From Negativicutes bacterium (GTDB lineage: Bacteria > Bacillota > Negativicutes > UBA1444): a DNA stretch of 64,000 nt. Below are positions 4,263 through 26,744 of the stretch, one piece after another (the first letter of the stretch is position 1; the number at the start of each line of letters is the position of its first letter). The notes under the pieces were generated by a model. That model ran no database searches, was not told the DNA's origin, and saw only the letters and a list, made by a program, of their open reading frames with translations. A program made the translations under genes and the position numbers. The DNA lies in assembly GCA_963665275.2 (NCBI GenBank), contig CAXXIN010000017.1:64001-128000 (forward strand), read 5' to 3'.

Positions 4263-4284
4263 CGTGCAACCTCTTTTCCTGTTT

Positions 4285-8284: not shown

Positions 8285-8300
8285 CGCTCCTTGTCTTAAC

Positions 8301-8336: not shown

Positions 8337-8425
8337 CGTGATGCCCTGAAATTTTCGCATGAAAAATTCGCATGGAAAAATCCGGACAGCCTCCTCCCCA
8401 TCGCTCGCAGGTAATAACGGTGACT

Positions 8426-8598
8426 CTAAAACAGGCAGTTCTCCTGACTTCCGGATCTTCACTCGCCCAAACCTTCCCAAGACCTTAAGTCCCAGTGGCA
8501 TATCATGGGTTTGCTCCCCGTTACAGTGGCGGGACCGTGTCGGCATTTCACCGAACTTCCCTATTAAGCCCCGAAGGGCACCTGTCTCTTCTATATTC
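8426..8598 (-). ncRNA. Cobalamin riboswitch 3
   Basis: Conserved AGGGAA..GGTGAAAT..CCCGCCACTGTAA and B12 box AGTCAGGAGAACTGCC. Upstream TTGACT-18-TAAAAT promoter at ~8613-8642. Confidence 0.95.
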
Positions 8599-8652
8599 AA
8601 TTATCATAGGTTATTTTACTCTTATTAGCAGCCACGAGTCAAGGCAACGCTC

Positions 8653-10978: not shown

Positions 10979-11041
10979 AAATCTAACACAGGAGTCGCGT
11001 CAAAATCCCCTCCCCATCGCGCGTGGGTAAAAACGGTGATT

Positions 11042-11214
11042 GTCAGACAGGCAGTTCTCCTGGCTCTGGATCATAGCTCGCCCAAACCTTCCCAAGACTC
11101 TCGTCCCAGTGGCATTTGATGGGTTCACTCCCCAATACAGTGGCGGGACCGCGCCGGCATTACACCGGACTTCCCTATTAAGCCCTCGCGGGCACCTATC
11201 CCGATATGAAATTT
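11042..11214 (-). ncRNA. Cobalamin riboswitch 4
   Basis: AGGGAAGTCCGGTGTAATGCCGGCGCGGTCCCGCCACTGTA...AGCCAGGAGAACTGCC. Confidence 0.95.
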
Positions 11215-11268: not shown

Positions 11269-12522
11269 TCAACCTAAAGCCTGGCGGCAATAATCACGAA
11301 AATTATTTACGGCAGTGAAGAACTCCCGCATCATAATCACCCCGAAGTAAGGCTTCGTCGTTACGAAAACACCTTCCTTCGGGCCTTTATCGATTCCGCC
11401 GCTCAGGCGAAAAAACAGCAGCATCGGCCAAAGAACGATTGAAGCGCTCCAGCCATATTTCTGCCGCAAATGGTTGGCATCGATCCTCAGCCCGAACAGC
11501 TGCATCATAAAATCATACAACATCATCGACAAACGGCTAAAATTGCGCCGCGCCGTAATCGGGAACTTCCCTGCGTCGATCTGTTGTATATACTCAGGGA
11601 TGTTGAACGTGTTCGCATAAACACACCCGCTTAAGTAGCCAAAAGCTCCGCTGCCAATCCCTGCATATTCCTCGTAATTGACAACATATTCATCAATAAG
11701 CGAAGCATCCCGTGAAAAGCACCAAGCCGTGCTGAGCCGGTACTCTTTCTGCAAAGTTGCCTTAATCATCTCATACAGGACTTGCCCGCGTTCGTCACAA
11801 ATAATCCCCATCGTTTTTTCAATCTTGTTGCGCGTAGTTGACGCCATCATCAAAGGGTAAAACGTCACCTGATCCACTTTCAGTTTTAAGAGAACATCCA
11901 AATCCCGTTGCAACTCCGCCTCTGTTTGCCCCGGAAAATTATAAATCATATCGGCGTTAAGCGTTGTAAAGATTCCTTGCGTCTCTTGAAGTCGCCGGGC
12001 AATTTCGTCGCCGCTACCGTACTTATGGAAACGGTCTGTTGCGCGCAAAATCGCGTCGTCAAAAGACTGAATACCCACAGATAACCGGCTTACCCCCGCC
12101 GCTTTCAGCGCCAGCATTCTATCCCGATCCAAATGATTCGGGTTCGTTTCCACCGATATTTCTTGGATATCGAAGTATTTTTTGACCCATGCAATCGTCG
12201 CTATCAATTCATCCATCAACACCGTCGGAGTTCCGCCGCCGATATACAGCGACTTGAAATTATAGCCGCCCCGCTCGTGATACATCAGAATTTCTTTGCG
12301 CAGTGCGGCAAAGTAACTACGAGCCAATTCTTCTTGAAACTTGACCCGATGAAAAGAACAATATGTACAGAGTTCTTCACAAAAAGGGATGTGTATATAC
12401 AGCATTAACGGAGCACGGGGTTCTGTCGGATGCGGCGGCTCACCAGAGGTATTATCATCAAACTGAATATAGCGGTTCGACATATTGCGTGCAACATAGC
12501 CAACAAAGCGTTCCAAAAACAT
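11269..12522 (-). CDS. HemN-like class C radical SAM enzyme, probable menaquinone methyltransferase (MenK/MqnK type)
   Basis: YIHIPFCEELCTYCSF, YIGGGTPT, QVTFYPLM, AWCFSR, DEYVVNYEEYAGIGSGAF. GGGGAG RBS before MFLERF. Confidence 0.7.
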   Translation of the reverse strand: MFLERFVGYVARNMSNRYIQFDDNTSGEPPHPTEPRAPLMLYIHIPFCEELCTYCSFHRVKFQEELARSYFAALRKEILMYHERGGYNFKSLYIGGGTPTVLMDELIATIAWVKKYFDIQEISVETNPNHLDRDRMLALKAAGVSRLSVGIQSFDDAILRATDRFHKYGSGDEIARRLQETQGIFTTLNADMIYNFPGQTEAELQRDLDVLLKLKVDQVTFYPLMMASTTRNKIEKTMGIICDERGQVLYEMIKATLQKEYRLSTAWCFSRDASLIDEYVVNYEEYAGIGSGAFGYLSGCVYANTFNIPEYIQQIDAGKFPITARRNFSRLSMMLYDFMMQLFGLRIDANHLRQKYGWSASIVLWPMLLFFRLSGGIDKGPKEGVFVTTKPYFGVIMMREFFTAVNNFRDYCRQALG

Positions 12523-12588
12523 AGGCTCCCCACATTTTCTGAAATTCATCAAACAAAATCATTTATATTATACCTCATTGGGGCAAAA

Positions 12589-12775
12589 TCAGTCGAACAC
12601 AGAAATAACCGGCTTGCCCTTGTTCCACGCGATATACATTAACCTTGAATCCTGCTTTCGTTAGACAGTTTCCGCCGAATCCTCCTCATCGCCGGCCATA
12701 TCATTTTGGGCATGATCGCCGGCTACCAGCATAAACGGCATTAAGTCAATTCCAGTTCTGGTTTGCCAAGCTTTC
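12589..12775 (-). pseudogene. Decayed cbiK remnant
   Basis: LMPFMLVAGDHAQNDMAGDEEDSAE, then in shifted frames LTKAGFKVNVY and KGKPVISVFD*. These match the C-terminus of the intact CbiK (LMPFMVVAGDHANNDMAGDEKDSAK...KDKPVIPVIE*). Confidence 0.88.
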
Positions 12776-12789
12776 AAAATTGCGCTCCA

Positions 12790-15700
12790 CTACCCGTCCT
12801 CGTTTCCGTCGCTCCGCTCCTCCAGTTCCCCCTCAATCGACAGATACAATTTGCGCAGTTCATCCAATGTATTTTCTTTGGCCTCCCACATACCCCGTTG
12901 TTGCGCTTCCAGCAGTTTTTCGGCAATGCGTCGCAACGCCCATGGATTGACTTCATTCATCCATTCTTGTATCGCAGGATCGAGCGCATACTTTGCAGCC
13001 AGCGTCTCATACATCCAGTTTTCCATCACCAGACTCGTGGCATCCCAATCATAGCAATGCGCCGCTACCGCCGCCAAATCGGCCGCGCCTTTATAACCAT
13101 GCTTTTTCATTCCCTCGATGTATTTTGGATTCATCGCCTCGCCGCGAAAAACCCGCGTGAACTCTTCTTCCAGGCTCCGAACCACGACTCGTCCACGATC
13201 CGAACTATCGCCGCAATATGATCGGGGAGCGCTGCCCCGCAGACTACGCACCGCCGCGACCATACCGCCATGGTAAGCGTTAAAATCATCCGAGTGCAAT
13301 AAATTGACTTCCCGGTTGTCTTCATTCTTTACCGTTACTTCCATCGTCGCCAAGCGTCGACTGAACCGCTCCGGTAAAAAATCTCCCTTGGCCTTCGCCC
13401 CGTAAGCATAAGCACCCCAACGCACGTACACTTTGCCAAGATCATCAACGCTTTCCCAGTTTTTTGCTTCCAATAATGCACCGACCCCGGCTCCATAGCT
13501 GCCAGGCGGACAGCCGAAAATGCGGTAGCCTGCCTGCTCGCGTGCTTCCTTGCCACGTAATCCCGTCTGCTCCAATTCCGTCGTTTCCGCTTCAATATGC
13601 TTGCGCACATAGTTTTCTTCCGCTGATTCAACCTGCGCCGCAGCCATCGCCACCGCCCGATCCATCCACTGCACCGCAAACGGCATGGAGTCTCGGAACA
13701 AGCCACTGATACGGGCCGTCACATCGATACGGGGACGCTTGAGTTCAGCAAGTGGGATCACTTCCAGCCCCGTCACACGTCCGCTGCCTTTCTGCCACAC
13801 TGGCCGAATTCCCAGGAAATATAGAAATTGGGCAATGCACTGCCCCCGGCTGCGCATATTGGCCCCGCTCCAGAGAATGACCCCGATGCTTTCCGGGTAA
13901 TGTCCTTCTTCGGCAACAAACCGTTCGATGAGCAAATCGCCCAATTGTTTGCCGCATTCCCAGGCCACCGACGACGGCAATGTTCGAGGGTCGACGCCGT
14001 AAAAGTTGCGTCCGGTCGGCAAAATATCGGCCATGCCGCTTGTTGGCGCACCCGCCGGTCCCGGTTCCACAAACCGCCCGCTCAAAGCGGCAAGGGAGTT
14101 GTCCATTTCTTGCGCCGTCAAGGCCAGATTTCGTTGCAACGGCCCGCAGAGATATTCCAACACCTGTCGCAATGCCGACAACTTTTCCGTTGCCGCGTTC
14201 TGCAGCCATTCGATTTCGCATTGGAGTGCGGGCCAGGTGTTCGCCAACTGAAATTCCGTTTCCACTAGTCGCAGCACAAGGCTTCGACAGTCCTCGCGAA
14301 CCTCGTCCAGCACAGCCCCGTAAGTCTTTGCTGTTTCGGTTATCCGCTCGCCCTGGCGATCCTGCAATTCTTCGTAACCATATCCTTTAAGTGCCGCGAC
14401 AGAAGTGAACAGCGACGGAATCTCCCCGTTTTGCAGTCGTGTCATCGCCAGCAGATATTCCACCAGCGAGTCCCCTATTGGAGCATGTCCGAGGATATGC
14501 AATCCAACGCGGATTTGCATATTCTTCAGATCGCTGACATAGGCATGCAGCCGTTCCAGATAGCTCTCGATATTCTCGCCGCCCTCCGGCGGGTTCACTG
14601 TATCATTCAGATTGGCGGCTGTAGCTGCCGCGAGAATTTGCACTGCGGTTTGATCCAATTTTTCCGGTTGGTTCAGTTTATAGTGCCAATACTCATCCAC
14701 CAACCGCTCCACATCCACCAGTTCATCATAAACTCCCGCATGGCTCATGGGCGGCGTCTGGTGACCGATGAGGCAGGCCGCGCCACGTCTTTTGGCCTGC
14801 ATCCCTTCGCCGACGATGGTGATCAGATACGGATAAATATTAGGCAGATCACCGAGCGCCAATTCCGGGTAACACTCGCCGGACAACCCCGTCGCTTTCC
14901 CCGGCAGCCACTCCAGCGAGCCATGGGTACCGATATGCATCACCGCGTCAGCACCGAAATCGTCCCGCAGCCATTCATAAAAAGCCAGATAATGGTGCGT
15001 GGGCGCGCAGTCAGGCGAGTGGTATATTTTCGCCGGGTCTTCACCGAATCCGCGCGGCGGCTGTACACTCACCACGATATTCCCCAACCGCATTCCCGGT
15101 ACAAGGAGGGCATCCCCGCGAACAAAAACCTTTCCCGGCGGAATTCCCCAGTCGCGGGTCAATTGCGTGGCCGGTTTGGACGGCAATCGGTCAAACCATT
15201 TCTGATAATCCGCAGCAGCCAAGTGGCCCAAAAATCCACCGGTTGCTTTTTCATCCGAGAACTCCCGATCATTCGTCCCGCACGCAATCAGGGAGTTCAT
15301 CAGGGTTTGGCTATCTTCCGGCAACGTCCCGACATCATAGCCTTCTTGCTGCATCCGGCGCAACAATTCCAGTACACTCGCCGGCGAATCCAACCCTGCC
15401 GCATTACCGATCGCGGCATTGGTCGGCGGGTAATTATGAAAAATAATAGCGACTTTTTTCTCCGAATTTGGCTTATGGCGCAACCTTGCCCATTTTTCAG
15501 CCTTGCGCGCCAACAGATCCATGCGTTCGGCTATCGGTGGATGGTGGATATCACCACCTCCCCGATCTTCTTTGCTGGCAAAAGGAACACTATGAATCAC
15601 GCCATCAAACTCCGGCAAGGAAACACTAAACGACAAATCCAACGGGGTCAACCCCTCAAGATTATCCCGCCACATTGTTTCGCTCTGAAGCAACGTATAG

Positions 15701-16524
15701 GCCTGCAAAATCGGCCGGCCCAAGTGTTGAAAGAAAGAAATGTCGATAGGACGCCCCACTGTCAAGGAAAACTTCAACGTGTTGATTACCACATCAACAA
15801 TCCAGCCGGATTCATCCCGAAAATAAGTTTCGATCGCCGTATCCACACCGGTACTTTGCTGAAGGGGATCAGCCGCCCAATGGCTAAATACGGGAATCAC
15901 GTTCAGCTCACGCTCCACCAGCGTTTTTACCAAAAGACTCTGATGTTTCAGATCCCCCCAGATCCACTCGTCCCGTGGAATCAAAAGACCGACTGTAAGC
16001 CTCCCTGGTTTTAACCACCCCTGCCTCTTATAGTCGTCTAATGATGCTATCCGCTGGTTATCACGCGGGTTTATAATCCCGCTCCAGGGGAGTTCCTGCG
16101 GCTCCCCGGTTTTCTCTTCATGGCCGCAAAAACGTCCGGCCAGCCAGCGCCACAAATTGCGGTAATTATGCTGCCCGCTAAACAACAGATAGCGATTCAC
16201 CGTCTCAATATTGGCCACGGTAAAACCTTGCGACGTATCTTCCTGATCAACACCGGATCCCATCAACAAATAAGGTTTGCCGCTCTCGCGCAGGAGCTTC
16301 AATGATTGTTGAATCAGCTTACTGTCGGAAGAACTTCCCATCCACGAAATCAACGTAACCGTCGCATTCGATAACTGGGTTTTCCATTCATCGCTCCACG
16401 ATGCACGTGGATCCGCCATAACCGCATCCCCTGCCGGAAAATCCGCCGACAGGGCCAGTTGCTTCAGAGTCTTGTCCATCATACTGGCTTGCCGGGTCAA
16501 GTTGGTAATGAATAAGATCCGCAT
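12790..16524 (-). CDS. cobN: Cobaltochelatase large subunit CobN
   Basis: 1244 aa with PEFDG, HNYPP, QPPRG, HIGTHGSLEWLPGK, LPTGRNFY and RPRIDV motifs of the CobN/ChlH family. Confidence 0.95.
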   Translation of the reverse strand: MRILFITNLTRQASMMDKTLKQLALSADFPAGDAVMADPRASWSDEWKTQLSNATVTLISWMGSSSDSKLIQQSLKLLRESGKPYLLMGSGVDQEDTSQGFTVANIETVNRYLLFSGQHNYRNLWRWLAGRFCGHEEKTGEPQELPWSGIINPRDNQRIASLDDYKRQGWLKPGRLTVGLLIPRDEWIWGDLKHQSLLVKTLVERELNVIPVFSHWAADPLQQSTGVDTAIETYFRDESGWIVDVVINTLKFSLTVGRPIDISFFQHLGRPILQAYTLLQSETMWRDNLEGLTPLDLSFSVSLPEFDGVIHSVPFASKEDRGGGDIHHPPIAERMDLLARKAEKWARLRHKPNSEKKVAIIFHNYPPTNAAIGNAAGLDSPASVLELLRRMQQEGYDVGTLPEDSQTLMNSLIACGTNDREFSDEKATGGFLGHLAAADYQKWFDRLPSKPATQLTRDWGIPPGKVFVRGDALLVPGMRLGNIVVSVQPPRGFGEDPAKIYHSPDCAPTHHYLAFYEWLRDDFGADAVMHIGTHGSLEWLPGKATGLSGECYPELALGDLPNIYPYLITIVGEGMQAKRRGAACLIGHQTPPMSHAGVYDELVDVERLVDEYWHYKLNQPEKLDQTAVQILAAATAANLNDTVNPPEGGENIESYLERLHAYVSDLKNMQIRVGLHILGHAPIGDSLVEYLLAMTRLQNGEIPSLFTSVAALKGYGYEELQDRQGERITETAKTYGAVLDEVREDCRSLVLRLVETEFQLANTWPALQCEIEWLQNAATEKLSALRQVLEYLCGPLQRNLALTAQEMDNSLAALSGRFVEPGPAGAPTSGMADILPTGRNFYGVDPRTLPSSVAWECGKQLGDLLIERFVAEEGHYPESIGVILWSGANMRSRGQCIAQFLYFLGIRPVWQKGSGRVTGLEVIPLAELKRPRIDVTARISGLFRDSMPFAVQWMDRAVAMAAAQVESAEENYVRKHIEAETTELEQTGLRGKEAREQAGYRIFGCPPGSYGAGVGALLEAKNWESVDDLGKVYVRWGAYAYGAKAKGDFLPERFSRRLATMEVTVKNEDNREVNLLHSDDFNAYHGGMVAAVRSLRGSAPRSYCGDSSDRGRVVVRSLEEEFTRVFRGEAMNPKYIEGMKKHGYKGAADLAAVAAHCYDWDATSLVMENWMYETLAAKYALDPAIQEWMNEVNPWALRRIAEKLLEAQQRGMWEAKENTLDELRKLYLSIEGELEERSDGNEDG

Positions 16525-16526
16525 AA

Positions 16527-16829
16527 TCAGCGCTCCTCCACCGAATCCGTGTAGTCACTTTCATAACGAACAAAATGCTCAAAATCATCCCGCCGGGGAA
16601 AACTAATCGCGGCAGACGGGCACTTTGGCACACATCCGCTGCATAACACCACGCATTCATATGGATGGGAAACGATTGGCTTGCCTGTTGATTCATCCAA
16701 GGTATAAACCCTTTTCGGGCAGAATTCGAAACATACTTTGCAGCCGATGCACCGAGTAGCATCAAGCGTCGGGTACCATTCAATCTGATCCCGGTCTACC
16801 AACAACGTCCGTTTTCGACGCACCTGCAT
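16527..16829 (-). CDS. 2x[4Fe-4S] ferredoxin-like protein
   Basis: CIGCKVCFEFCP and CVVLCSGCVPKCP. Confidence 0.85.
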   Translation of the reverse strand: MQVRRKRTLLVDRDQIEWYPTLDATRCIGCKVCFEFCPKRVYTLDESTGKPIVSHPYECVVLCSGCVPKCPSAAISFPRRDDFEHFVRYESDYTDSVEER

Positions 16830-16842
16830 TTTTTCACCCGCC

Positions 16843-18279
16843 TTACAATCCAATCTTTTTCCATACATGAATCCGATAGGCCCCGATGATCGCACCGCTA
16901 TCCAGCTGAAGCGGCGCTTCCATCCCCACCATGTGCGTAGCATTGGCGGCAACCGCAACACAGGGACCTTCTGTCGGCAAAAAATCCACGATATCCAGTT
17001 CCGGCGTCGACAACATCACCATGCCATGGATGGATGTGTCTTTGGTTCGAATGTTTCGCCCGATCGCTACCGCCAACTGATTGCCCGTGCTTTTGAATTC
17101 TTCCACCATGCCGCCCAGCTTGCGACGTTTCAGCAAACTTCCCTCATGATCAAATAGAAATACACTGTTGCTCTGGGGATGCTCCACCGGTGTCGGCAAT
17201 TGCCAATTCGCCCTGTTATACGTATTCCCTGTGGAAAACGCCACATATTCGCCGACATGCTGGACATGCAGTCCGGTAGCATTCAGAAACACCCCCTGGA
17301 TTTTCTGTGGGGCACTCAGCGTCCGCGTCCACAACAGTTTTCCTGTAGCAACCAGCAAAAACGCGCGCCCATCAGCCGAGACTCCGCCGAGATATTTGCC
17401 ATCATCGGAAATCGTCGGCCCAAAACGCATGTTCGTGCGGTCATAGGGGGGAACTGTCGCCAGCGCTTGACTCCAACGAAACTCGCCCGTCTTGGCGTCA
17501 AAAACATATACATTATCTTTATATTTTCGTTCCGGACCCGGCGTATAGTCCGAAGTTCCAAAGGTCAGCGTCGTTCCTGCCTCATCCACATCGCACCAGC
17601 TGACCCACACGTCCAGATTGTGGTCGCGAGGAAACTGCATCACAACCCCTTTGTCATCGAACTTATAGATCCGGGCAAAATACTCCGTCTTTCCGCTGGA
17701 AAAGCGGATGGAGCGCAACGCCACCGCATAGGCATTGCCGACTCCATCCACAGTGATGGACATTATGCCAGGAAACGTCTTTTGGCGAATATCCACGCCC
17801 AGCTCATCGACACTGGACTTGCGCCAGAGCTCGGAACCAGTAGTCGCGTCAATACAGATCACGGCGCCCTGTTGACTGTTTTCACCGACATAAATTAGGC
17901 GTGCGTCCTTGGAAAATTCCAATGCGCTGATTTTCCCCATGCCGATCTTACGACTCCATTGCCGGTTTCCCTGCAAGTCCAGCAGCATCACTTCGCCGCT
18001 CTCTGTACCTACAACCAGACGCGAACCCTCCGGTGAGAGCCGGATCAGTCCGGGAGTCGATCCCATCTGCTTGAACCCGCGAATTTCTACCTTGCCCAGC
18101 GGAATCTCGCTGATTTTTTCATACCGCCCCACGCGGCTGACATTTTTTTTGGCAGTCGCCACCCCTTCAATCGGTTGTAATTCAGGAAAAATATGCAGCG
18201 CCAGCCCCACCAGACTGCCAAGAAACAACAGGAATATCCCAGCTGTAATTATTTTACTTTTTATCTCACTCACAACCAC
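16843..18279 (-). CDS. Membrane-anchored PQQ-like/WD40 beta-propeller protein
   Basis: N-terminal TM and repeated D-x-x-T-G-x-x-x-W blades (DATTGSELW, DAKTGEFRW, ATGKLLW). Confidence 0.75.
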   Translation of the reverse strand: MVVSEIKSKIITAGIFLLFLGSLVGLALHIFPELQPIEGVATAKKNVSRVGRYEKISEIPLGKVEIRGFKQMGSTPGLIRLSPEGSRLVVGTESGEVMLLDLQGNRQWSRKIGMGKISALEFSKDARLIYVGENSQQGAVICIDATTGSELWRKSSVDELGVDIRQKTFPGIMSITVDGVGNAYAVALRSIRFSSGKTEYFARIYKFDDKGVVMQFPRDHNLDVWVSWCDVDEAGTTLTFGTSDYTPGPERKYKDNVYVFDAKTGEFRWSQALATVPPYDRTNMRFGPTISDDGKYLGGVSADGRAFLLVATGKLLWTRTLSAPQKIQGVFLNATGLHVQHVGEYVAFSTGNTYNRANWQLPTPVEHPQSNSVFLFDHEGSLLKRRKLGGMVEEFKSTGNQLAVAIGRNIRTKDTSIHGMVMLSTPELDIVDFLPTEGPCVAVAANATHMVGMEAPLQLDSGAIIGAYRIHVWKKIGL

Positions 18280-19157
18280 ACCGCCATGAAGTCATATACG
18301 CCGCGCAACTCAGGGAAATAAGCAAGTCCGTTAAACTGCAATACATATAGCATTTTCAAGGTGGTGCCTGTCGCAATTCCGGCGAATACCATCAGGCAAG
18401 CAAGCCTTTCCACAACGGGCCACGCAGTCAACCCTGCCCGCTGCCCACAGCGACCAAATCCCCGGCTTTCCACCGACAATGCCAATGTCGCAGCCCGACG
18501 CAAGGCACGCGCCAAAATTGGGAACAAAACATAAAATGCAGTCCGCACCCATCGCAACGGAGAGAGCGTCCGCATCGGTTCAAATCCGCGCAGACGTTGC
18601 GCCGTAAGCACAATCGCCGTTTCTTCAAAAATCACCGGCAGAAACCGCAAGCTGGTAATCAGCATAAAGGCAATGGGATAGGGCATCTTCCAATGCAAAA
18701 AACACTGCAACAATTGCCGGGGATCGGTGGTCCAGCAAATGAGCAACCCGCAGGCAAGCATGATTCCTGAGCGCAGGGCTTGCACCGCCCCATGTTCCAG
18801 TCCTTCACGATAAACAAAGATACCCCCTGTCGCCTCACCGATCCAGGGCACGGTCGGGGATACCAGGCAGGCAATCATCGTACGCGGTTCCTGATTATAA
18901 AAAAGAGCCTGACTGAGCATCGCACCCCAAATTCCAACGAGCAAAAAGATAATCAGGATCTTCCAACGCTCAACCGAAGAGCGGGCAACAACATGAAAGC
19001 CCAACGACAACAAAAATACCAAGAATAATGGTCGCGGCCCTTCCAGGCCCACAGCAAATAGCACAATCGCCGCCAACAATACGAGCTTTGTTCGAACGTC
19101 CAAGTTGTGAACCGGCGTATCAGCAGGCGTTGCTTCCCAGACTTGTCTGTTGTACAT
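18270..19157 (-). CDS. ECF transporter transmembrane T component (CbiQ/EcfT-like)
   Basis: LDVRTKL, LRFLP, AQRLRG and ESRGF motifs. GGAGG RBS before MYNRQ. Confidence 0.9.
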   Translation of the reverse strand: MYNRQVWEATPADTPVHNLDVRTKLVLLAAIVLFAVGLEGPRPLFLVFLLSLGFHVVARSSVERWKILIIFLLVGIWGAMLSQALFYNQEPRTMIACLVSPTVPWIGEATGGIFVYREGLEHGAVQALRSGIMLACGLLICWTTDPRQLLQCFLHWKMPYPIAFMLITSLRFLPVIFEETAIVLTAQRLRGFEPMRTLSPLRWVRTAFYVLFPILARALRRAATLALSVESRGFGRCGQRAGLTAWPVVERLACLMVFAGIATGTTLKMLYVLQFNGLAYFPELRGVYDFMAVWL

Positions 19158-20811
19158 ACTGGACCACCTCCTCCACGCAGAGGGCGCATCCGCCGTATAA
19201 TTCACGGGAAACCCGCAGCGCAGCCGGAGCCCGCAGCCCTGCCAGACGCAAAACCTCTTCGCTGGAAAACACGTCTCGCGGTGGAGCGTCAGCAACAATT
19301 CGTCCAGCCGTCATGACCACCACTCTCTCGGCGTAGCGGGCCGCGACCTCCGTATCATGCGTGCAGAAGATGACAGTCCCGCCTGAGGCGGTATATTCCT
19401 GCAACAGCGCAATAATATCGTCAATGTGTCCCAAATCCTGTCCGGTCGTCGGTTCGTCCAGCAACATGATATCCGGCTTATACGCCAATAGCGCAGCAAT
19501 AGCCACCCGTACCCGCTGCCCTTGGCTTAGCGCCAACGGGAATCGTTCTCCCATGCCGGCCAGACCTATTTTTGCCAGTAATAAACGCCATTCGCCATGA
19601 TCGGGCGCATTTTGGCCGCCATGATGCAAGCCGAATGTGATTTCTTTCTCTACAGTAGAATTAAACAGCATTAAATCCGGATTCTGCATAACCATTCCGA
19701 CCCGCCGGTCCAGCGACTTGACTACCTGTCCATCCACTATCACTTTTCCAGCCTGTGCCTGCTGCAACCCGCAAATATGATGCAACAAGGTTGACTTGCC
19801 TGCTCCATTGTTGCCCATAAGTGCGACAAATTGCCCGCAGGGGACAGTCAAATGGATGCCGTCAAGAATTTTTCGTCCCCGAGGATCGTATCGGAAGTCC
19901 AATCCTTGGATCTCTATCGCGATATTTTCCGTCGGAACCGGAATCGTTTTCACAGGCACTCGCACAGCCACCTCACACTTTGGATAAGCCTTGCGAATAT
20001 CGTGAACCGCATCCTCAACCGAAGCGCTCTGCGACAAAACACCCAGTCCGTGGCAAATATGGACTGGCTGAGGAATTCTCAGGCCCATATCCAGAAATAC
20101 TCCGGGGCTGCGGAACGCCTCCTGTCGCTTTCCCTGCCAAGAAATCCCTCCATTTTCCATTACCAGCACATGTTTGCAAAGAGGCATCACCTCATGCAAA
20201 CGATGTTCAACAATAATCAGGGTTATTCCAAGCTCCTGATTCAGTTTCTGCAAAACCTGCAACAATTCCATTGCACCGCGTGGGTCCATCTGGCTGATTG
20301 GCTCGTCCAACGCCAACATCTTCGGCCGGACGGCGAGTACTGCCGCCAACGCCAATCGTTGCCGCTCCCCGCCGGACAAGGCGTGCACACTGCCCTGCTC
20401 TCGCCCCGACAAGCCAACCCAACCCAGTGTTTCCTCCACCCGCTCTCGAATTGCCTGCCGTTCCATGCCCATGTTTTCCAGCGCGAATCCGACTTCATCC
20501 GCAACCGTTGTCGAAAATATCTGATCGTCGGGGTTTTGGAACATCAAGCCCACCGTACGGCTCAATTCTGCTACGGAGGATTGCAACGAATCCACCCCGT
20601 CCACCAGTACGCTTCCGCGTAGCGTTCCGCTGATTTCGTGGGGAATCAGCCCATTAAATGCTTTTAACAATGTACTCTTCCCACAACCGGTCGGCCCGGT
20701 GCACAAAATAAAATCGCCTGCTTCGATTGTCAAATTAATATTGGCAATGCTGGGAATTGATCGAGTCTTATAAGTAAAAAACAGGTTTTTGCATTCCACA
20801 ATCCCGGTCAT
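19120..20811 (-). CDS. ECF transporter fused double ATPase (A-A')
   Basis: Two Walker A motifs (GPTGCGKST, GNNGAGKST), QNPD Q-loops, LSGGE and LSQGQ signatures. Confidence 0.93.
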   Translation of the reverse strand: MTGIVECKNLFFTYKTRSIPSIANINLTIEAGDFILCTGPTGCGKSTLLKAFNGLIPHEISGTLRGSVLVDGVDSLQSSVAELSRTVGLMFQNPDDQIFSTTVADEVGFALENMGMERQAIRERVEETLGWVGLSGREQGSVHALSGGERQRLALAAVLAVRPKMLALDEPISQMDPRGAMELLQVLQKLNQELGITLIIVEHRLHEVMPLCKHVLVMENGGISWQGKRQEAFRSPGVFLDMGLRIPQPVHICHGLGVLSQSASVEDAVHDIRKAYPKCEVAVRVPVKTIPVPTENIAIEIQGLDFRYDPRGRKILDGIHLTVPCGQFVALMGNNGAGKSTLLHHICGLQQAQAGKVIVDGQVVKSLDRRVGMVMQNPDLMLFNSTVEKEITFGLHHGGQNAPDHGEWRLLLAKIGLAGMGERFPLALSQGQRVRVAIAALLAYKPDIMLLDEPTTGQDLGHIDDIIALLQEYTASGGTVIFCTHDTEVAARYAERVVVMTAGRIVADAPPRDVFSSEEVLRLAGLRAPAALRVSRELYGGCALCVEEVVQYVQQTSLGSNAC

Positions 20812-20814
20812 TGT

Positions 20815-22485
20815 TCAATCACTCCCCACGTCGGCCAAGCGACTGCCGAGCAATAACCCGCACCCCGCTCCAATCATCGTATAGAAAAAACCGTTGACCG
20901 CCATCACCATGTAGATATACCAATCCGCATAATAAAGTCGATATAGTACAGCCATCCCCTGCATTGTGACATAGGTGGCTGCTGTGTCCGCCAGTGCGCA
21001 GGCCAGCGCCAGTATAACCATCCTGCGAAGTGTAAAGCGTATTGGTTCCGCCTCCTCCATCCGGGCCGATGTAAAACCGGTGGCAGCCAACGCCAATTCA
21101 AGCAGAAAAGCATTCACACCATAAGACAGCAATACAATCGGCGACATGTGTCCAAACGCGACCATGCCGAGCAGCATACGGATCGCCGCCATCAATGTAA
21201 CTACGCCGTGAAGCGGGATCAGGGTAATCAACGCACCGGTCAGCATATACAGCATGACGCCGCTAAACATCCCTGTAAGCAAGAAGCCGAACGGGCCGAG
21301 AAAAATATGAAAAAAATCATTCAATAACGTTGAAGGAACGTTCACCACCGCAAAAGCGCAGGTTCCAAACAAGGCGATCGTAATCAGGCGACGCGTTTTC
21401 ATGCCGGCCAGTACGAACGGCAATCGCTTGGCAATCAACACCAGAAACGCCAGAAGCATCAGCAAGGCAATTCCGAGGGTAAACAAGCCCCGCATGTTTT
21501 TCTTGACTACCACGATAGGCGTCTCTCGGGACCACACTTGAGTCTCGCCATCCTCAACCGTGACCCGCAGCAAATATTTTCCCTCGGTCAATAGCGATTC
21601 ATCGGCATAAATCGGCAATAACAACCGTTGCCGCGCCTCGCCGGTCAAAGCGACAAACGCTGTCAATCGCTCCTGATTTGCCGCCATCGCGCCTGCCCCG
21701 TCGTTATCGGAATTACTACCGGGAGTGTATAAGCCGGGGACTTTTCGATGAGTGTTTTTATCGAGAAGTTCCGCTTCCACTATCACCAGTTTTTGCTGCC
21801 CTGCAGGATTGCTGAAATCCAGTCCCATATGGCTTACTGGATGGATGGCCTCTATTTCCAGATTCGAAACGCCCTTGCCGCGCAGTATGTTTTTGAAATA
21901 GTCCAGCGAACGGTCGCGCAGCACCAAAGCACTGCCATTTTGTTTCTCATCACGTTTTCCATCTTTGTCCAGCGGCAAAACAATTTGTTCAAAAACCGGA
22001 GCTTGTCGAGGTGAAACACCTGAAGCCGGAGGTGCTACCGTCAAGGCAATACTCTTTGACATTCCATCAACAACAAGCCGAATCGGCTGTGCGCCAATTA
22101 CCATATTTTCATCGACAGTCAGCGTCAGAAAATCAAACCACTGACCATAGCCGCCAGCTAGTACAACAGTTTTTGTAATCGCCTGCCCACTCTGCCGAGA
22201 TGCCATCTGCCAGTTTTCCTGTCGCTCCGACAAAGTAATCCCTGCAGGAAAAAGGATTTCGACTGGAACGATGCGTTCTTGCGAGGCGGTGTTCTCAATG
22301 CTGAAAACCGCATGAATGGTTTCCCCCGGCGCCGCTGTCATTTGGTTCCGCCCCAGTGAATAGGGAATCTCCAGCGTTGCGTTGATCCCTGGCGCTTCTG
22401 CGGCCAGGCAAGGCAATGTTCCCCATAAAACTAGGCCTGCCACATATAGCAGGTTGAAATGTTTCAGCCATTGGTAAATCCGCAT
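20815..22485 (-). CDS. Probable ECF substrate (S) component fused to a large exported N-terminal domain
   Basis: Signal peptide, ~300 aa soluble beta-rich region, then ~7 TM helices starting near MKTRRLITIALF, typical of S components. Adjacent to the ECF A and T genes. Confidence 0.65.
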   Translation of the reverse strand: MRIYQWLKHFNLLYVAGLVLWGTLPCLAAEAPGINATLEIPYSLGRNQMTAAPGETIHAVFSIENTASQERIVPVEILFPAGITLSERQENWQMASRQSGQAITKTVVLAGGYGQWFDFLTLTVDENMVIGAQPIRLVVDGMSKSIALTVAPPASGVSPRQAPVFEQIVLPLDKDGKRDEKQNGSALVLRDRSLDYFKNILRGKGVSNLEIEAIHPVSHMGLDFSNPAGQQKLVIVEAELLDKNTHRKVPGLYTPGSNSDNDGAGAMAANQERLTAFVALTGEARQRLLLPIYADESLLTEGKYLLRVTVEDGETQVWSRETPIVVVKKNMRGLFTLGIALLMLLAFLVLIAKRLPFVLAGMKTRRLITIALFGTCAFAVVNVPSTLLNDFFHIFLGPFGFLLTGMFSGVMLYMLTGALITLIPLHGVVTLMAAIRMLLGMVAFGHMSPIVLLSYGVNAFLLELALAATGFTSARMEEAEPIRFTLRRMVILALACALADTAATYVTMQGMAVLYRLYYADWYIYMVMAVNGFFYTMIGAGCGLLLGSRLADVGSD

Positions 22486-22498
22486 GACTTCTCCCCTA

Positions 22499-23185
22499 CT
22501 ATCGCAAATCAAAGACCACAGGCAATGTAGCCCAGGCTGCCACCGGCGCCCCTTTTTGCAACGCCGGGCTAAAGCGCCAGGACCGAACTGTGCGTTGCGC
22601 CGCCGCATCCAGTTCCCCATAACCTGAACTACTCACTACCCGGACGTCTTCCACCCGTCCTTCCGTATTGACTAGTATCTGAAGTTTGACCGTTCCTTCC
22701 CAGCCTTTAACCCGCGCATTTTCCGGATACTCCGGTCGCCCGCCCTCAACGATTCGCGGCCCCCGTGTCGGTCCGGATCCGCTTCCTGTGCCCGGTCCCA
22801 TTCCCGTTCCTTGCCCAGCGCCGGTTCCGCCACCCGTCCCGCCGCCGCTCCCCCCCGAGCCGCCTGCGCCGCCGCGGCCTCCCGCCGGTGCAGCCGGAGT
22901 GGAAGTTGCTGCCGATCGAAGATCCGTCACTCCAGCGAAGCTATTATGGGATTGTGGCGCAGTTTGATTATCCGCTGGCCTTGGCGCGCCCATTGGCGTA
23001 CCGCCTCCCCCGGCAGCTCCATCCACCGGCGAAAGCAATTCGGCCATTGTCACTTCCACATAGATCGGCTGGCGTGACTGAACAGCTTCCCAACTCCAGA
23101 ACGCGCCCGCCGCCGCAACCAAAATGACATGAAGAAGCAGCGAGCCGACCAGTGCCGCCCGCCACCGCTTTTGATCGTCCATCAT
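22499..23185 (-). CDS. tonB: TonB energy transducer
   Basis: N-terminal TM with SLLLH, Gly-rich linker, C-terminal PEYPENAR..EGTV..SSG..LDAAA..WRFSPA. Confidence 0.9.
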   Translation of the reverse strand: MMDDQKRWRAALVGSLLLHVILVAAAGAFWSWEAVQSRQPIYVEVTMAELLSPVDGAAGGGGTPMGAPRPADNQTAPQSHNSFAGVTDLRSAATSTPAAPAGGRGGAGGSGGSGGGTGGGTGAGQGTGMGPGTGSGSGPTRGPRIVEGGRPEYPENARVKGWEGTVKLQILVNTEGRVEDVRVVSSSGYGELDAAAQRTVRSWRFSPALQKGAPVAAWATLPVVFDLR

Positions 23186-23586
23186 CAACCTTTTGGGTCC
23201 ACGGCAAGCGAAATTTTTCCCGCACCGGCGCGTTTCACGGCGTCAATGACTTCCACCACTTTGCCGTGATGGGAGTCTTTATCTGCCTTGATGAAAACCA
23301 GCGGGTGGCTGTGAACTTTCGCCGCCACAGTTGCCGCCAGTTCACCGACCGAAACCTGTTGATCGCCCACCGCGATTTTCCCGTCCTTGTTTACCAGAAC
23401 CGTGATGTGTTCCGGCGGCTGTGGCGTACCGCTTGCTGCCTGTGGCGGCGTGATGTTGAAGCCGGGGTGGGCCGCCAAAAAGGTCGTAGACATCATGAAA
23501 AAAATCAGCAGCAGCATCATGACATCGACCATCGGTGTCATATCAACATGTACCGGCGCATGGGGTGATTCCCTTCGATAACGCAT
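23185..23586 (-). CDS. exbD: ExbD/TolR biopolymer transport protein
   Basis: DMTPMVDVMMLLLIFFM and IKADK motifs. Confidence 0.92.
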   Translation of the reverse strand: MRYRRESPHAPVHVDMTPMVDVMMLLLIFFMMSTTFLAAHPGFNITPPQAASGTPQPPEHITVLVNKDGKIAVGDQQVSVGELAATVAAKVHSHPLVFIKADKDSHHGKVVEVIDAVKRAGAGKISLAVDPKG

Positions 23587-23603
23587 GGAAAGCTCTCCTT
23601 CCT

Positions 23604-24194
23604 CTAGGCGCCGGCGCGTCGGACGATCTCGCCGACGCAGCCTTCGGTCCAGTGCAGCAGCCGTTCTACCCGGTTGCGAAAATGATTGTTGGCAATGATG
23701 CACGGGATAGCGACCAATAGCCCACCCGCTGTATTGTACAGGGCTTCGGAAATCCCTTCCGCCAGCATTTGCGGATTTCCGAGGCCAGTCATTGATGCGG
23801 CCTGAAAAGTTTTGATCATGCCCAGCACTGTGCCAAGAAGTCCGAGCAACGGCGCCACCGTGGCAGCTGTGGTGAGCATATACAAGTTGCGCTCCAGCAC
23901 GGGGATTTCCGCCCGAACGGCATCATCCACCGCGTTCTGGCGAGCTTCCCTTTCGGCCGGAGGAATCACGGCAGCTGCTTCCCACATTTTAGCGAACACC
24001 GCGTTCTCCGACCCACGATACAGAACTCCGGCGCTGCCTGACGCCGATTCTTTCAGCCAATCCCGGAAGGTCTTGGCGGCCGCATCGGCTGATCGGTAAA
24101 ATAATCCTCGTTCGATAATGACCGCGCAGGCCACCAGAGAACAGGCCATGATAACGACAATGACGTAGCCGCCTTTGGCGATGATTTCTAACAT
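23604..24194 (-). CDS. exbB: ExbB/MotA/TolQ proton channel
   Basis: APLLGLLGTVLGMI and GISEALYNTAGGL motifs. Confidence 0.92.
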   Translation of the reverse strand: MLEIIAKGGYVIVVIMACSLVACAVIIERGLFYRSADAAAKTFRDWLKESASGSAGVLYRGSENAVFAKMWEAAAVIPPAEREARQNAVDDAVRAEIPVLERNLYMLTTAATVAPLLGLLGTVLGMIKTFQAASMTGLGNPQMLAEGISEALYNTAGGLLVAIPCIIANNHFRNRVERLLHWTEGCVGEIVRRAGA

Positions 24195-24203
24195 GAGCTC
24201 CTC

Positions 24204-26259
24204 CTAAAAATTCTGGGTCAGTTTCAGGTAAAATGCCCGTTCCGGCGTAATATATCCGCCATCATTCGTATAATCAATGCGGTTGAAAAGATTTTCGACG
24301 CGTAGCGTCAATTGCGTATTTTTTGTAACATCATAATTGAGCATCAGGTTCGCTTGCAGGGATGGGGGTATCGCACCTGAGCTGACGGTAGCTGGAGCGA
24401 TCGGAGACAACAACTGTCGCATCCCGACATAGGTCGCCGCCAGACTTCCCGACCATTTCCCCTTGCGGTAATTCAGACCGGCATTCAATTGCAAGTTTGC
24501 CTCCGACTGTTCCCATTCCGCAGCGTTCTGTGTCTTCGCTTCCGGGTTGCCATACATAGCACCCAGGGAAAACCCCCAGCCGCCTTTTAGCGACCGTGCA
24601 TATTCAACTTCCATGCCCAGGTTGCGGAATTGGGCGTTTTGCGATTGGTAATTTTTCACGGTCGAGGTTCCCAAATTCACCCATTGGTGCAGGTTGGAAA
24701 AATCCAGCTTATAGACGGCCACTTTTAAAGAATCCGATTCGCGGATTTTTTTCCAGCCGATTTCATATGTCCAGCCCGTATCCGGTTCCAAACTCGGATT
24801 AGGAATTGTTAATGTTGAACTGGAAAACATCGCCGTCCAATTTGGCGCCCGGAATGATTTGCCCACATTCAGATATAACGACTGATCTCGGTTTAGTTTG
24901 TGCAGTATTTGAAACTGCGGACTGACTTGCCCATAATTATCCAAATTATTTTGTTGCGCGATGATATCCTGTCGCAATCCAAGGATGAAATTCGTCTTGG
25001 CCGACAGCGGATGATCGATTTGTCCGAAGAACGAAAACAGGTCGCGCTGTTTCAGTGGTATTGCAGTAGTACTGCCTAAAAACACATTGGTTGAATAGGT
25101 GTCTTTTTGCCAGGACAATCCGGCGGTGTAGGATCCAAACCCGGTTTTCCAGGTGCTTTGACTATCCGTGCCATACGTCTGCATATATTGCCTTGAATTC
25201 GATGCAGTCAACTTGGCTCCATTTGTGCTTAAACTGGCGATCGGGGCTGTGTTGGCTTGGTTTCGCACCAGCCCGTTGTAGTAAAGTTTATGTGTCCAGG
25301 AGCCGGAGCGGATTTGCAACGAAGTGATATCGTTGGCGTCCTGTTGCCACATGGTTCCCAGGCTATCGTCCTGTTTCCAGGCCTTGCCCGCCAATCCACC
25401 TGTGGACGCAACCAGTTTTGACAATTGAAAGGTATCGTCGATATGTCGATAATTCCACGTAATTGCATCTGTAATCGCCCATGTAAAGTCAAAGGTTTGC
25501 TTCGACTCATAATCGAAGTTCGTATAATAAGGCGCATAAGCAGTGGTCGTGGTCGTTGTCTTGCCTTTTGTTGTCGTCGTCGTAGAAGTGCTGTAGCCCG
25601 GTCGCGTCGTTTGCATCGCTCCCATGTTTCCGGTATAGTCGCGATTATAGGATACATAGAACTTCCCTGCCTGCAGTGAAAGGCTTTCCCGATTCGTGCC
25701 AAAGCTGCCGACTTCTACGGAAGCACTGCTTTGTCCAGATTTCTTCGTAATGACATTGATAACTCCGCCCATGGCCGCGCTACCATATAACGTCGATGCG
25801 GCTCCTTTGACAATCTCAATACGCTCTATGCTGTCGGTGGGTATATTCTGCAGTTCATACTTTCCATTCCAATTGATGGGGATTCCGTTAAGCAACACTA
25901 ATGCACTTAGATCTTTCCCCATGCCCCGGATGGAAACACCGCCGGTCATACCGCTGTAAAGCGATCCACGCGCGCCATAGGTATCAATCGTGACCCCAGT
26001 GGAAAACTTCAGCGCTTCCAGAACATTGGTCGCGCCGGTCTCCTTTATTTTTTCGCGGGTCAGCACCTCCACGGCGGCCGGCGTCGTCAGTTCTTTTGAT
26101 TCACGCCGCAAAGCAGTCACCAACACCGGATCAAAACTGTATTCCTGATTTTCCTCCGCCATCGCCAGGCCCGATGTCACGAGGCACAATACTCCCTGCC
26201 ATCAACCCCGCTACAGTTCTCCGCGACCAATTCCGGGCCCACTTCTTGCTCAGCTTCAT
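24204..26259 (-). CDS. TonB-dependent receptor (BtuB-like), frameshift in the signal peptide at ~26195
   Basis: Plug motifs SIRG, LLNGIP, IERIEIVKGAASTLYGSAAMGGVINVITK; VENLFN; C-terminal LTQNF. Probable true start MKLSKKW at 26259 with a GAAGGAG RBS. Confidence 0.9.
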
Positions 26260-26340
26260 TCTCGCAACTCCTTCAAAAATCATATGCCCAAAGTCTCTAT
26301 TTCTAACCATTCCAAAAGATTGGAACGTTGATTTTTTTAT

Positions 26341-26420
26341 GGAGGCCTCCCCCTGAAAAGAGACCTCCGGCTAATGAATCCACGCCCTAGCTAAAAAGAC
26401 GTGAAATTCGGGTAACGCTA
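26341..26420 (-). repeat. Conserved two-hairpin noncoding element, copy 2
   Basis: GCGTTACCCGAATTTCACGTCT-loop-AGGGCGTGGATTCATTAGCCGGAGGTCTC-loop-GAGGCCTCC. Confidence 0.75.
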
Positions 26421-26508
26421 TAAAAAAAGAATAGCTCCCTGGTGTGGGAGCTATTCCGGACAGCTGGCTGTCTTTTGATAAAAAATCCCGGCAAAATATG
26501 CCGGGAAG
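26421..26508 (-). terminator. Two consecutive terminator hairpins in the riboswitch 5 leader
   Basis: TCCCGGCATATTTTGCCGGGA-TTTTTT and GAATAGCTCCC-ACACCA-GGGAGCTATTC-TTTTTTT. Confidence 0.78.
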
Positions 26509-26571
26509 AAGTTCAACACAGGAGCTGCGCCAAAATCCCCTCCCCATCGCGCGTGGGTAAAACGGTGATTG

Positions 26572-26744
26572 TCAGACAGGCAGTTCTCCTGGCTCTGGAT
26601 CATAGCTCGCCCAAACCTTCCCAAGATTTTTCATCCCAGTGGCATTTGATGGGTTTGCTCCCCAATACAGTGGCGGGACCGCGCCGGCATTACAACGGAC
26701 TTCCCTATTAAGCCCCTCAGGGCACCTATCCCGATATGAAATTG
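26572..26744 (-). ncRNA. Cobalamin riboswitch 5
   Basis: Core nearly identical to riboswitch 4. TTGACA promoter element at ~26794-26799. Confidence 0.95.

Follow-up and report, generated by a model that had tools for sequence, protein, structure and literature searches.

Results

A cobalamin riboswitch heads an operon of envelope uptake genes and cobN

We studied a 64,000-nucleotide stretch of DNA from a Negativicutes bacterium (UBA1444; NCBI GenBank assembly GCA_963665275.2, contig CAXXIN010000017.1, positions 64,001 to 128,000 of the forward strand), hereafter the window, in which a cobalamin riboswitch is followed by genes for transport across both membranes and by the gene of the chelatase subunit CobN. 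All coordinates are those of the window unless a contig (C), locus (L) or genome (G) of our comparison is named. With the Rfam model RF00174, five minus-strand cobalamin riboswitches are detected in the window, at 101-115 bits each against a gathering score of 31.5. The whole assembly (G000; 3.97 Mb in 20 contigs, 92.6% complete) contains seven such riboswitches above the cut-off, five of which are those of the window, gathered within 27 kb. Riboswitch 5 heads 11 minus-strand genes, assigned with Pfam and NCBIfam, that overlap or abut one another; the sole gap larger than 40 bp inside this operon measures 237 bp and separates CobN from the radical S-adenosylmethionine (SAM) gene at the end.

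The first four genes encode a TonB-dependent receptor (24204-26189; Plug, E = 8.8e-26, and TonB_dep_Rec_b-barrel, E = 2.5e-33), ExbB (23604-24194; PF01618, E = 8.1e-31), ExbD (23185-23703; PF02472, E = 3e-31) and a TonB protein with one N-terminal membrane helix (22499-23188; TonB_C, E = 3.5e-26). They are followed by an energy-coupling factor (ECF) transporter, which consists of the S-component fusion P601 (20815-22485, within a 601-residue open reading frame [ORF] at 20815-22620), a fused A-A' ATPase with two ATP-binding cassette (ABC) domains (19120-20811) and a T component of the CbiQ family (18270-19298). The A-A' protein scores above the cut-offs of both TIGR04520 (401.8 bits, cut-off 315) and TIGR04521 (400.6 bits, cut-off 330). 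The T component matches PF02361 (100.6 bits, cut-off 25) and stays below the cobalt-specific equivalog TIGR02454 (67 versus 111.8 bits). Downstream are a PQQ_2-like beta-propeller protein, periplasmic and either membrane-anchored or secreted (16843-18279; PF13360, E = 6.5e-13), a 2x[4Fe-4S] ferredoxin (16527-16961; Fer4_9 and Fer4_7) of uncertain start, whose ORF overlaps the propeller gene by 119 nucleotides, the cytoplasmic large chelatase subunit CobN (12790-16524; PF02514, 1280 bits, and TIGR02257, 992 bits) and, as the last gene, a HemN/ChuW-like radical SAM enzyme (11269-12552; NF006385, 471 bits, cut-off 355). The latter reaches 169 bits with the HutW/ChuW model, which has a cut-off of 400.

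The aptamer of riboswitch 5 (26562-26744, minus strand; 101.2 bits over the full model, positions 1-189) lies upstream of the receptor gene. A promoter scan places a sigma-70-like promoter upstream of it (26799-26771), and two terminator-like hairpins with T runs are found downstream (26506-26486 and 26457-26428). Hairpins of this kind behind an aptamer are what an OFF switch should have. B12 represses the unit, which ties import to a class I chelatase. A first-pass annotation of the window had proposed just such a unit, joining import and chelation, and the RF00174 match, the hairpins and the gene order bear it out. The tightly packed order receptor-exbB-exbD-tonB-S-AA'-T-propeller-ferredoxin-cobN that it gave is confirmed by Rfam, Pfam and NCBIfam, as is its placing of ChlI (6182-7210) and ChlD (4285-6169) under riboswitch 3; all the genes it named are present, and only the last gene, the HemN/ChuW-like enzyme, had been left out.

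Positions 11366-24299 of the window are letter-identical to contigs of two public sequencing runs. At the 5' end of the operon, a 59-residue ORF in another frame (26131-26310) precedes the receptor ORF and is conserved with the receptor 5' region in the nearest relative (L002). The true 5' end of the receptor gene, with its signal peptide, may lie near 26310, perhaps shifted out of frame by an error of the record.

P601 carries a predicted ECF S component of an unnamed family

P601 belongs to no Pfam or NCBIfam family, and a Pfam scan of its two halves at E up to 5-10 gave no match. Its homologs are mostly about 530-560 residues long, and 109 clusters of similar length were identified, all of whose named sources are Negativicutes and none of which has a Pfam domain. 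Because most homologs are of this length, we place the start of P601 at Met46 of the 601-residue ORF, which gives a protein of 556 residues. Its AlphaFold model, with a predicted local distance difference test (pLDDT) score of 81, starts with an N-terminal helix, to which two beta-sandwich domains (residues 34-150 and 164-327) and a helical domain in the membrane are joined, so that in the model about 330 periplasmic residues precede a seven-helix core.

The last 231 residues, modelled alone (pLDDT 86), were compared with 48161 solved chains using VIA-align. The 15 top fold matches are all ECF S components (Z = 14.3-8.2), and the next match, an unrelated protein, has a Z of 6.4. The best match is 5edl (Z = 14.3, root-mean-square deviation 3.0 over 173 residues), after which come 4hzu_S, NikM, RibU, ThiT, CbiM, FolT, BioY, BtuM and PanT. 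The Z score is 11.3 for NikM (184 residues), 9.3 for CbiM (179 residues), 8.4 for BtuM and 5.7 for CbrT. Foldseek also ranks 5edl at the top, at an E of only 0.025. The whole model retrieved only generic Ig-like or beta-sandwich matches, and the beta-sandwich region itself had no informative match. A weak match to PF09819 (E = 0.006) was seen in one of 15 members of the P601 family. These fold comparisons indicate that the C-terminal core of P601 is an ECF S component, as the first-pass annotation had called this gene.

A profile of the S domain retrieved 432 representative proteins at E up to 0.001, in most of which the domain is C-terminal in a protein of 500-700 residues. One of a different kind, P0308 (1204 residues), comes from a metagenome-assembled genome (MAG) of SAR324 and has a P601-type S domain (448-669) fused to two ABC ATPase domains. 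This natural fusion ties the P601-type S domain to ECF-type ATPases.

P601-type S domains occur in 42 of 151 sampled Negativicutes genomes. In a 41-genome sample, 10 of the 12 genomes of the window's own family have the domain and two of the 12 have Peripla_BP_2, the BtuF-type domain, of which G000 has none; in the rest of the class, Peripla_BP_2 is found in 27 of 28 genomes and the P601-type S domain in five of 28. On this distribution P601 replaces BtuFCD in the window's own family.

The propeller protein belongs to a family of 85 clusters, the named sources of which are almost all Negativicutes or other Bacillota. All 30 aligned members have an N-terminus rich in K and R followed by a hydrophobic helix, with a mean net charge of +3.1 before the helix and 0 after it. 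This charge pattern places the propeller in the periplasm. In the ESM Atlas, the clusters retrieved with the propeller were all PQQ_2/BamB-like and from Bacillota, and a phmmer search against the PDB gave only weak matches of BamB type. A full-length homolog (E = 9e-22, 25% identity over 391 residues) is encoded in the cobalamin operon of the Haloferax mediterranei plasmid pHME322, where it lies (L047:15887-17116) between genes for CbiX and a DUF3209 protein on one side and genes for a VWA protein and CobN on the other. Among the named sources of P601 and propeller homologs are cultured Sporomusa and Methylomusa species.

The uptake genes form an independent unit

The receptor has the two domains of its class (PF07715, 90.9 bits; PF00593, 117.1 bits) and falls far below both BtuB equivalogs (133.8 versus 599.7 bits for TIGR01779 and 101.2 versus 836 for NF007926). 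In three congeners without CobN (G007, G010 and G005), the eight genes from receptor to propeller stand alone, the TonB gene of G005 being under the coverage filter. In a genome of another family that also has no CobN (G032), the receptor and the four transporter genes are accompanied by an ABC-2 pair and are without ExbB, ExbD and TonB. A cobalamin riboswitch lies directly 5' of the receptor in all four of these loci. Similarly, the genes for P601, A-A', T and the propeller are adjacent in nine of nine loci where P601 was seen. In the window and its nearest relative (L002), ferredoxin and CobN are added downstream of the uptake genes. The uptake genes are thus an independent unit that is also found without CobN, and the operon of the window is a composite. 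Homology, predicted fold, synteny and distribution together show a complete import route across the envelope, with a TonB-dependent receptor, its own ExbB-ExbD-TonB energiser, an ECF importer and the propeller.

CobN groups with cobaltochelatases

CobN has 1244 residues and scores 991.7 bits with TIGR02257 (cut-off 822), against 829.3 bits with the BchH model (cut-off 829). It is of full length and closer to CobN than to ChlH or BchH, and its AAA+ and VWA partners, ChlI and ChlD, are present. Among solved chains its scores are 767 bits (Mycobacterium tuberculosis) and 724 bits with CobNs, 517 bits with ChlH and 395.5 bits with HmuS. In a tree of 24 rows, built by a quick method with SH-aLRT support values, it falls within a clade of 11 Negativicutes rows (support 100), which is nested in a 14-row clade that includes the CobNs of Haloferax, Ralstonia and Pseudosulfitobacter (support 98). 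BchH stands outside this group, and so does a clade that holds Methylomonas and the T. lovleyi plasmid protein. By its sequence, then, CobN groups with the true cobaltochelatases and not with ChlH or HmuS.

The first-pass annotation had considered that this CobN might be of the HmuS/BtuS type, and that it might remove a metal. The first idea is contradicted by the tree, in which it stands with biosynthetic CobNs, and by its match to solved chains (767 versus 395 bits); HmuS is the weakest of the three classes there, no membrane helix or hydrophobic segment that could act as an anchor occurs across the 1244 residues, and ChlI and ChlD are present. Metal removal finds no positive support, CobN being outside that type. 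Of the phylogeny that the annotation had proposed, the tree covers CobN and BchH, and HmuS was compared by PDB score alone.

CobN is patchy in the genus, being present in five of 11 congeners, and its closest loci belong to Negativicutes MAGs at 82-88% identity. Over the 151 genomes, 32 have both the P601-type S domain and CobN, 10 have the S domain only, 25 CobN only and 84 neither. CobN therefore occurs in 32 of 42 genomes with the S domain and in 25 of 109 without it. The association is strong, although kinship among the genomes makes these counts overstate it. In five relatives CobN is directly followed by a radical SAM/SPASM gene, with ChlI and ChlD just beyond; ChlI-ChlD comes after two more genes in G029 and was not seen in the stretch searched in G028. 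Elsewhere, a Ni/Co transporter and a ferredoxin directly precede CobN-ChlID in Ralstonia, and the T. lovleyi plasmid has its CobN homolog among TonB uptake genes. A ferredoxin as a conserved partner of CobN was considered and rejected: the window's ferredoxin is not homologous to those adjoining CobN in Ralstonia or Haloferax.

Beside CobN in the relatives, under further riboswitches, we found CbiZ (seven loci), CN-hydrolase (six loci), BtuF/BtuC, a corrinoid adenosyltransferase and a trio of nitrogenase-like NflH-D-D genes. A 40-kb region of G030 (C1:1601286-1640584; L024-L026) contains four CobN paralogs with only one ChlI-ChlD pair seen there. The partner sets of the four are BtuF with CN-hydrolase, a receptor, the P601-ECF-propeller genes, and CbiZ with Nfl subunits.

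Other riboswitch-controlled genes of the island

In the window, an insert of 4.4 kb parts CobN from the SPASM-ChlI-ChlD block. The insert holds the HemN-like gene, riboswitch 4 (11033-11214, minus strand; RF00174) with the genes for a CbiK with a signal peptide (9869-10822) and a porin-like outer-membrane protein (8894-9850), and riboswitch 3 (8417-8600, minus strand; RF00174). The same pair of CbiK and outer-membrane protein is found near CobN in G023, and the outer-membrane protein also in the G031 locus. Under riboswitch 3 follow the radical SAM/SPASM enzyme (7223-8401), ChlI, ChlD, an ABC-2 ATPase (3423-4310), an ABC-2 permease (2683-3423) and an HlyD adaptor (1770-2666), all on the minus strand. 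In the record ChlD is broken into ORFs of 560 residues (4487-6169) and 82 residues by one extra letter near 4540, which is missing in all three runs covering the site; the frameshift belongs to the record and not to the organism, whose gene is intact and no pseudogene. The spacer that separates CobN from the radical SAM gene contains a 38-residue ORF (12661-12777, minus strand) that matches internal parts of CbiK genes in four other loci, at E values down to 8.5e-12. We regard this CbiK remnant, on the strength of these matches, as the relic of a rearrangement.

The two remaining riboswitches precede genes of other kinds. Riboswitch 1 (435-620, minus strand; RF00174) precedes genes for methylmalonyl-CoA mutase and MeaB (L020:11739-16121), which puts a B12-dependent enzyme behind a B12 switch of the OFF type. 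The mutase is spread over five ORFs here, which suggests more insertion or deletion errors in the record. Riboswitch 2 (1193-1375, minus strand; RF00174) is followed by two small overlapping ORFs in different frames (630-1015), each with a CxxC...CxxC zinc-ribbon motif, and these may be one gene broken by a frame error. To the left of the window, the same island has a nitrogenase-like trio (G000 C17:54081-57475; L020:6079-9476) of NflH, which scores just below the NifH and CfbC cut-offs, and two component-1-type subunits. At least seven other loci have a homologous trio next to CobN, CbiZ or BtuF (L005, L009, L024, L027, L029 and L035, with a partial one in L031). The accessible text of a 2026 review of nitrogenase-like enzymes mentions neither corrinoids nor CobN.

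The organism is probably a B12 producer with early cobalt insertion

The window has no gene for building the corrin ring and no BtuF, as the first-pass annotation had reported. Family searches of the whole assembly, at its completeness of 92.6%, found no CbiD, CbiC, CbiB, CobS or Peripla_BP_2. They returned only three short GATase_3 matches (22-32 bits) in open frames of 191-212 residues, none of the size of CobQ or CbiA. Four TP_methylase genes are present, all on other contigs: CbiL, a CobA-HemD fusion, YabN and RsmI. Contig C3 has a riboswitch-led locus of CbiL, a cytoplasmic CbiK and CbiM-CbiQ-CbiO, and the assembly also holds a riboswitch-led pair of CobT homologs and the genes HemA-HemC-CobA/HemD-HemB-HemL. 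Nine matches to B12-binding domains were found in the genome, seven of them over the cut-off.

B12 auxotrophy, which the missing CbiD, CbiC, CobQ/CbiA-type amidases, CbiB and CobS would imply, was rejected after a check of synteny at contig C4. CbiD is present in 10 of 11 congeners. In two of these congeners, the genes on the flank of the cbi cluster have their counterparts in the final 1.9 kb of C4, and the 368-residue protein bordering the cluster is cut by the end of this contig, so that only residues 246-368 are kept, stopping 22 bases from the end. Because CbiD is so widespread in the genus and the border gene is cut at the end of C4, the corrin pathway is missing from the assembly most likely because of a gap. 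We take the organism to be a probable B12 producer that inserts cobalt early and has a high demand for the vitamin.

The early-insertion markers CbiL, CbiK and CbiMQO, together with CbiD in 10 of 11 congeners, argue that CobN is not the chelatase of a late-insertion pathway. For the pathway check that the first-pass annotation had proposed, the markers found are those of early insertion, in a search that did not extend to CobG and CobF. Given an early-insertion route with CbiK, hydrogenobyrinic acid a,c-diamide is not expected as a substrate. The chelatase of the pathway is CbiK, and CobN is an accessory tied to import. The salvage route of the first-pass annotation thus holds in so far as import is tied to a chelatase; the organism is probably no pure salvager, since its ring genes have most likely been lost to the assembly gap.

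Discussion

Cargo of the transporter and role of CobN

We favour corrinoid-type uptake in which CobN-ChlID serves as a second, forward cobaltochelatase accessory to import, a proposal that we hold at even chances. When adenosylcobalamin falls, the terminators behind the riboswitches would be read through and the cell would take up a corrinoid-type tetrapyrrole, complete or incomplete. The receptor would move the ring over the outer membrane, the propeller and the beta-sandwich domains may capture it in the periplasm, and the ECF motor would carry it over the inner membrane. CobN-ChlID, driven by ATP and with electrons from the ferredoxin, could then insert cobalt into imported or self-made rings that lack it. 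Insertion, the forward direction, is favoured because of the clade in which CobN falls. For the proposal as a whole we count the riboswitch with its terminators, the uptake unit that occurs alone behind riboswitches, the fold of the S component, the scarcity of BtuF-type proteins in the window's family, the B12 demand of the genome, the co-occurrence of the S domain with CobN, the salvage genes and multiple CobN paralogs of relatives, and the Dehalobacter and haloarchaeal parallels. The cargo itself is a balanced call, for which a corrinoid has about half of the probability and cobalt or a cobalt complex is a candidate that we would doubt sooner than believe.

Several observations weigh against corrinoid uptake with CobN as its accessory. 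No sequence feature names the cargo. The receptor is under every substrate-specific NCBIfam cut-off, siderophore and haem models scoring alike, and its sequence matches in the PDB likewise fail to separate B12, haem and siderophore types. Searches with tblastn for the CbiZ, BtuF and BtuC of the relatives found nothing in G000. The island of G030 holds a P601 transporter together with BtuF/BtuC, so the two are not simply interchangeable. Neither of the enzymes that might assist CobN is a conserved partner: the ferredoxin adjoins CobN in the closest relative (L002) only, and the HemN-like gene has no counterpart listed in the other loci searched. Cobalt is held very firmly in natural corrinoids, and a cobalt-free imported substrate of CobN is therefore hypothetical. 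Further points on this side touch the metal. The extra helix that precedes the P601 core has its match in a further N-terminal helix of NikM and CbiM, which are metal-specific and give the longest alignments; a NikA/CntA-like binding protein and ABC system in the same island fits a metal theme; and the Haloferax homolog of the propeller, without a signal sequence and probably cytoplasmic, belongs to an operon for de novo biosynthesis, beside CbiX.

The last three points can be read as support for high-affinity import of cobalt, free or bound to a small chelator, with the propeller as a periplasmic metal chaperone and with CobN-ChlID acting, when cobalt is too scarce for CbiK, on sirohydrochlorin or on the cell's own intermediates. 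It would also suit the cobaltochelatase clade of CobN, the anaerobic pathway, present or very probably so in the organism and its genus, the T and A components, which score best with cobalt-type ECF models, the periplasmic CbiK of the riboswitch-rich island and the Ni/Co transporter before CobN-ChlID in Ralstonia. However, the organism already has a canonical cobalt importer, CbiMQO, encoded together with CbiK and CbiL behind a separate riboswitch, and the salvage genes CbiZ, CN-hydrolase and BtuF/BtuC (BtuFCD) flank CobN in several relatives, both of which favour a corrinoid. Multiple CobN paralogs in one genome are hard to fit with a single metal and a single pathway substrate. The N-terminal amino group binds the metal in CbiM and NikM, a mechanism that is impossible in P601 with its 330-residue periplasmic region before the core, and a dedicated TonB system would be unusual for an ion that permeates porins. 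We consider cobalt import of this kind possible but on the whole doubtful.

The genes under three adjacent riboswitches, namely a maturase-like enzyme, an exporter with an adaptor, a receptor, an importer and a reductant, could also make up a metallophore cycle. In such a cycle the SPASM enzyme would mature a peptide or modify a tetrapyrrole, ABC-2/HlyD would export the product, cobalt would be bound outside the cell or in the periplasm, perhaps with the help of the periplasmic CbiK, the receptor and the ECF transporter would re-import the complex, and CobN would transfer the metal. The best NCBIfam matches of the SPASM enzyme are indeed peptide maturases (PapB, 129 bits), all far under their cut-offs, although the tetrapyrrole enzymes AhbC, AhbD and NirJ score almost equally. 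The ABC-2 pair is also a companion of CobN or of the P601 module in G011, G030, G032 and a Smithellaceae contig. Against a metallophore, no conserved precursor-like ORF was found among the 71 small ORFs of at least 20 residues in 1-27200, where conservation outside the riboswitches is confined to the shifted ChlD end, the CbiK remnant and a few shared with the nearest relatives only, and no biosynthetic scaffold gene is evident. We judge this cycle improbable.

Reverse chelation would have CobN, the ferredoxin and the ChuW-like enzyme strip imported haem or an unusable corrinoid of its metal in the manner of HmuS/BtuS, and the ring be exported afterwards. CobN homologs in TonB uptake loci do include HmuS, a proven haem dechelatase according to the accessible part of its report (PMC12583661). 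The T. lovleyi plasmid offers another such locus, an exporter is co-regulated in the window, and the operon ends with a gene similar to ChuW/HutW, which degrades haem anaerobically, at a score well below that model's cut-off. The window's CobN, however, has no membrane anchors of the HmuS kind, gives its lowest score with HmuS and lies apart from the T. lovleyi/Methylomonas clade. ChlI and ChlD are kept, whereas HmuS activity is described in the same source as needing no ATP. The regulator is B12 and not iron, and the HemN-like gene is not conserved beside CobN in other loci. Of all the readings considered here, we give the least credence to this one.

A further reading would have the island, with its neighbours just left of the window, encode an undescribed route that rebuilds or re-metallates external corrin-type rings with the new ECF transporter, whose beta-sandwich and propeller parts would bind a tetrapyrrole, the periplasmic CbiK, CobN-ChlID, the SPASM enzyme and the NflH-D-D reductase. 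In one version a sirohydrochlorin-type ring would leave the cell via ABC-2/HlyD, be loaded with cobalt by the periplasmic CbiK and return through P601, so that the ring would act as a cobalt carrier. We think it unlikely that such a route exists.

Comparison with known systems

Why strict anaerobes with early cobalt insertion should have CobN-ChlID has reportedly been an open question since the 2003 comparative genomics of B12 metabolism. The locus described here makes that question testable: it presents the chelatase as an addition that can be detached from a well-defined set of uptake genes, it brings in a new transporter family, and it provides conserved partners that can be assayed, namely the propeller, the SPASM enzyme and the nitrogenase-like reductase. 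Genetic work and uptake assays are within reach, since species of Sporomusa and Methylomusa with homologs of P601 and the propeller are in culture. Should the cargo be a corrinoid, P601 would stand for a third type of B12 importer in the inner membrane, the one on which an entire family of diderm Firmicutes (class Negativicutes) relies. In the accessible parts of papers from 2015 (PMC4285132), 2021 (PMC8305020) and 2022, the presence of CobN is still flagged as unexplained or speculative. Among these, a review of haloarchaeal annotation speculates that CobN-ChlID in a cobalt-early organism serves salvage, and it lists unassigned proteins in the homologous cluster of H. volcanii (PMC8305020, from the accessible text).

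The closest parallel in regulation and content is operon-2 of Dehalobacter restrictus PER-K23, which, in the accessible portion of Rupakula et al. 2015 (PMC4285132), comprises a riboswitch, corrinoid transporters, CbiZ, CobN and Mg-chelatase subunits and has a counterpart in Acetobacterium woodii. Upon corrinoid starvation its transcript rose 346-fold and its protein 46-fold (PMC4285132). Both loci unite a riboswitch, a transporter, CobN and Mg-chelatase-type subunits under one regulation, and, as far as that portion goes, the role of CobN is unexplained in both. They differ in that operon-2 is described there with FepBCD/BtuFCD-type transporters, two CbiZ and no outer-membrane step, whereas the window has a TonB-dependent receptor with its own energiser, a new ECF S component and the propeller, and neither CbiZ nor BtuFCD was found in the assembly.

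Like the class I chelatases CobNST and CobN-ChlID (solved CobN structures 7c6o and 9uk9), the window has a full-length CobN that passes the equivalog and has these as its closest solved chains, together with ChlI and ChlD. Unlike canonical CobNST, it is found in an organism of early insertion with CbiK, and the gene is patchy in the genus and joined to an uptake operon. With HmuS/BtuS of Bacteroidota it shares, as described in the accessible text of PMC12583661 and PMC6460266, the position of a CobN-family protein behind a TonB-dependent receptor. HmuS is reported to exceed 1400 residues, to be membrane-anchored and not to require ATP, and to be stimulated by NADH in the membrane fraction (PMC12583661). 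The window's CobN differs in having 1244 residues, in being soluble, in its ChlID partners and in its clade.

The transporter resembles CbiMNQO and NikMNQO, which carry metal, and ECF-CbrT and BtuM, which carry cobalamin, in its ECF ATPase, its T component and the shared fold of the S core. It is distinguished from all of these by the two beta-sandwiches within about 330 periplasmic residues of its S component, by the constant propeller partner and by its lack of any Pfam or NCBIfam family. Similarly, pHME322 of Haloferax mediterranei has a homologous propeller near a VWA protein (ChlD-like by domain), CobN and a ferredoxin, yet its operon is one of de novo biosynthesis, its propeller has no signal sequence and it includes neither a receptor nor an ECF transporter of the P601 type. 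A B12-regulated locus of uptake and chelatase genes is thus of a kind already known, and the P601 transporter family is new.

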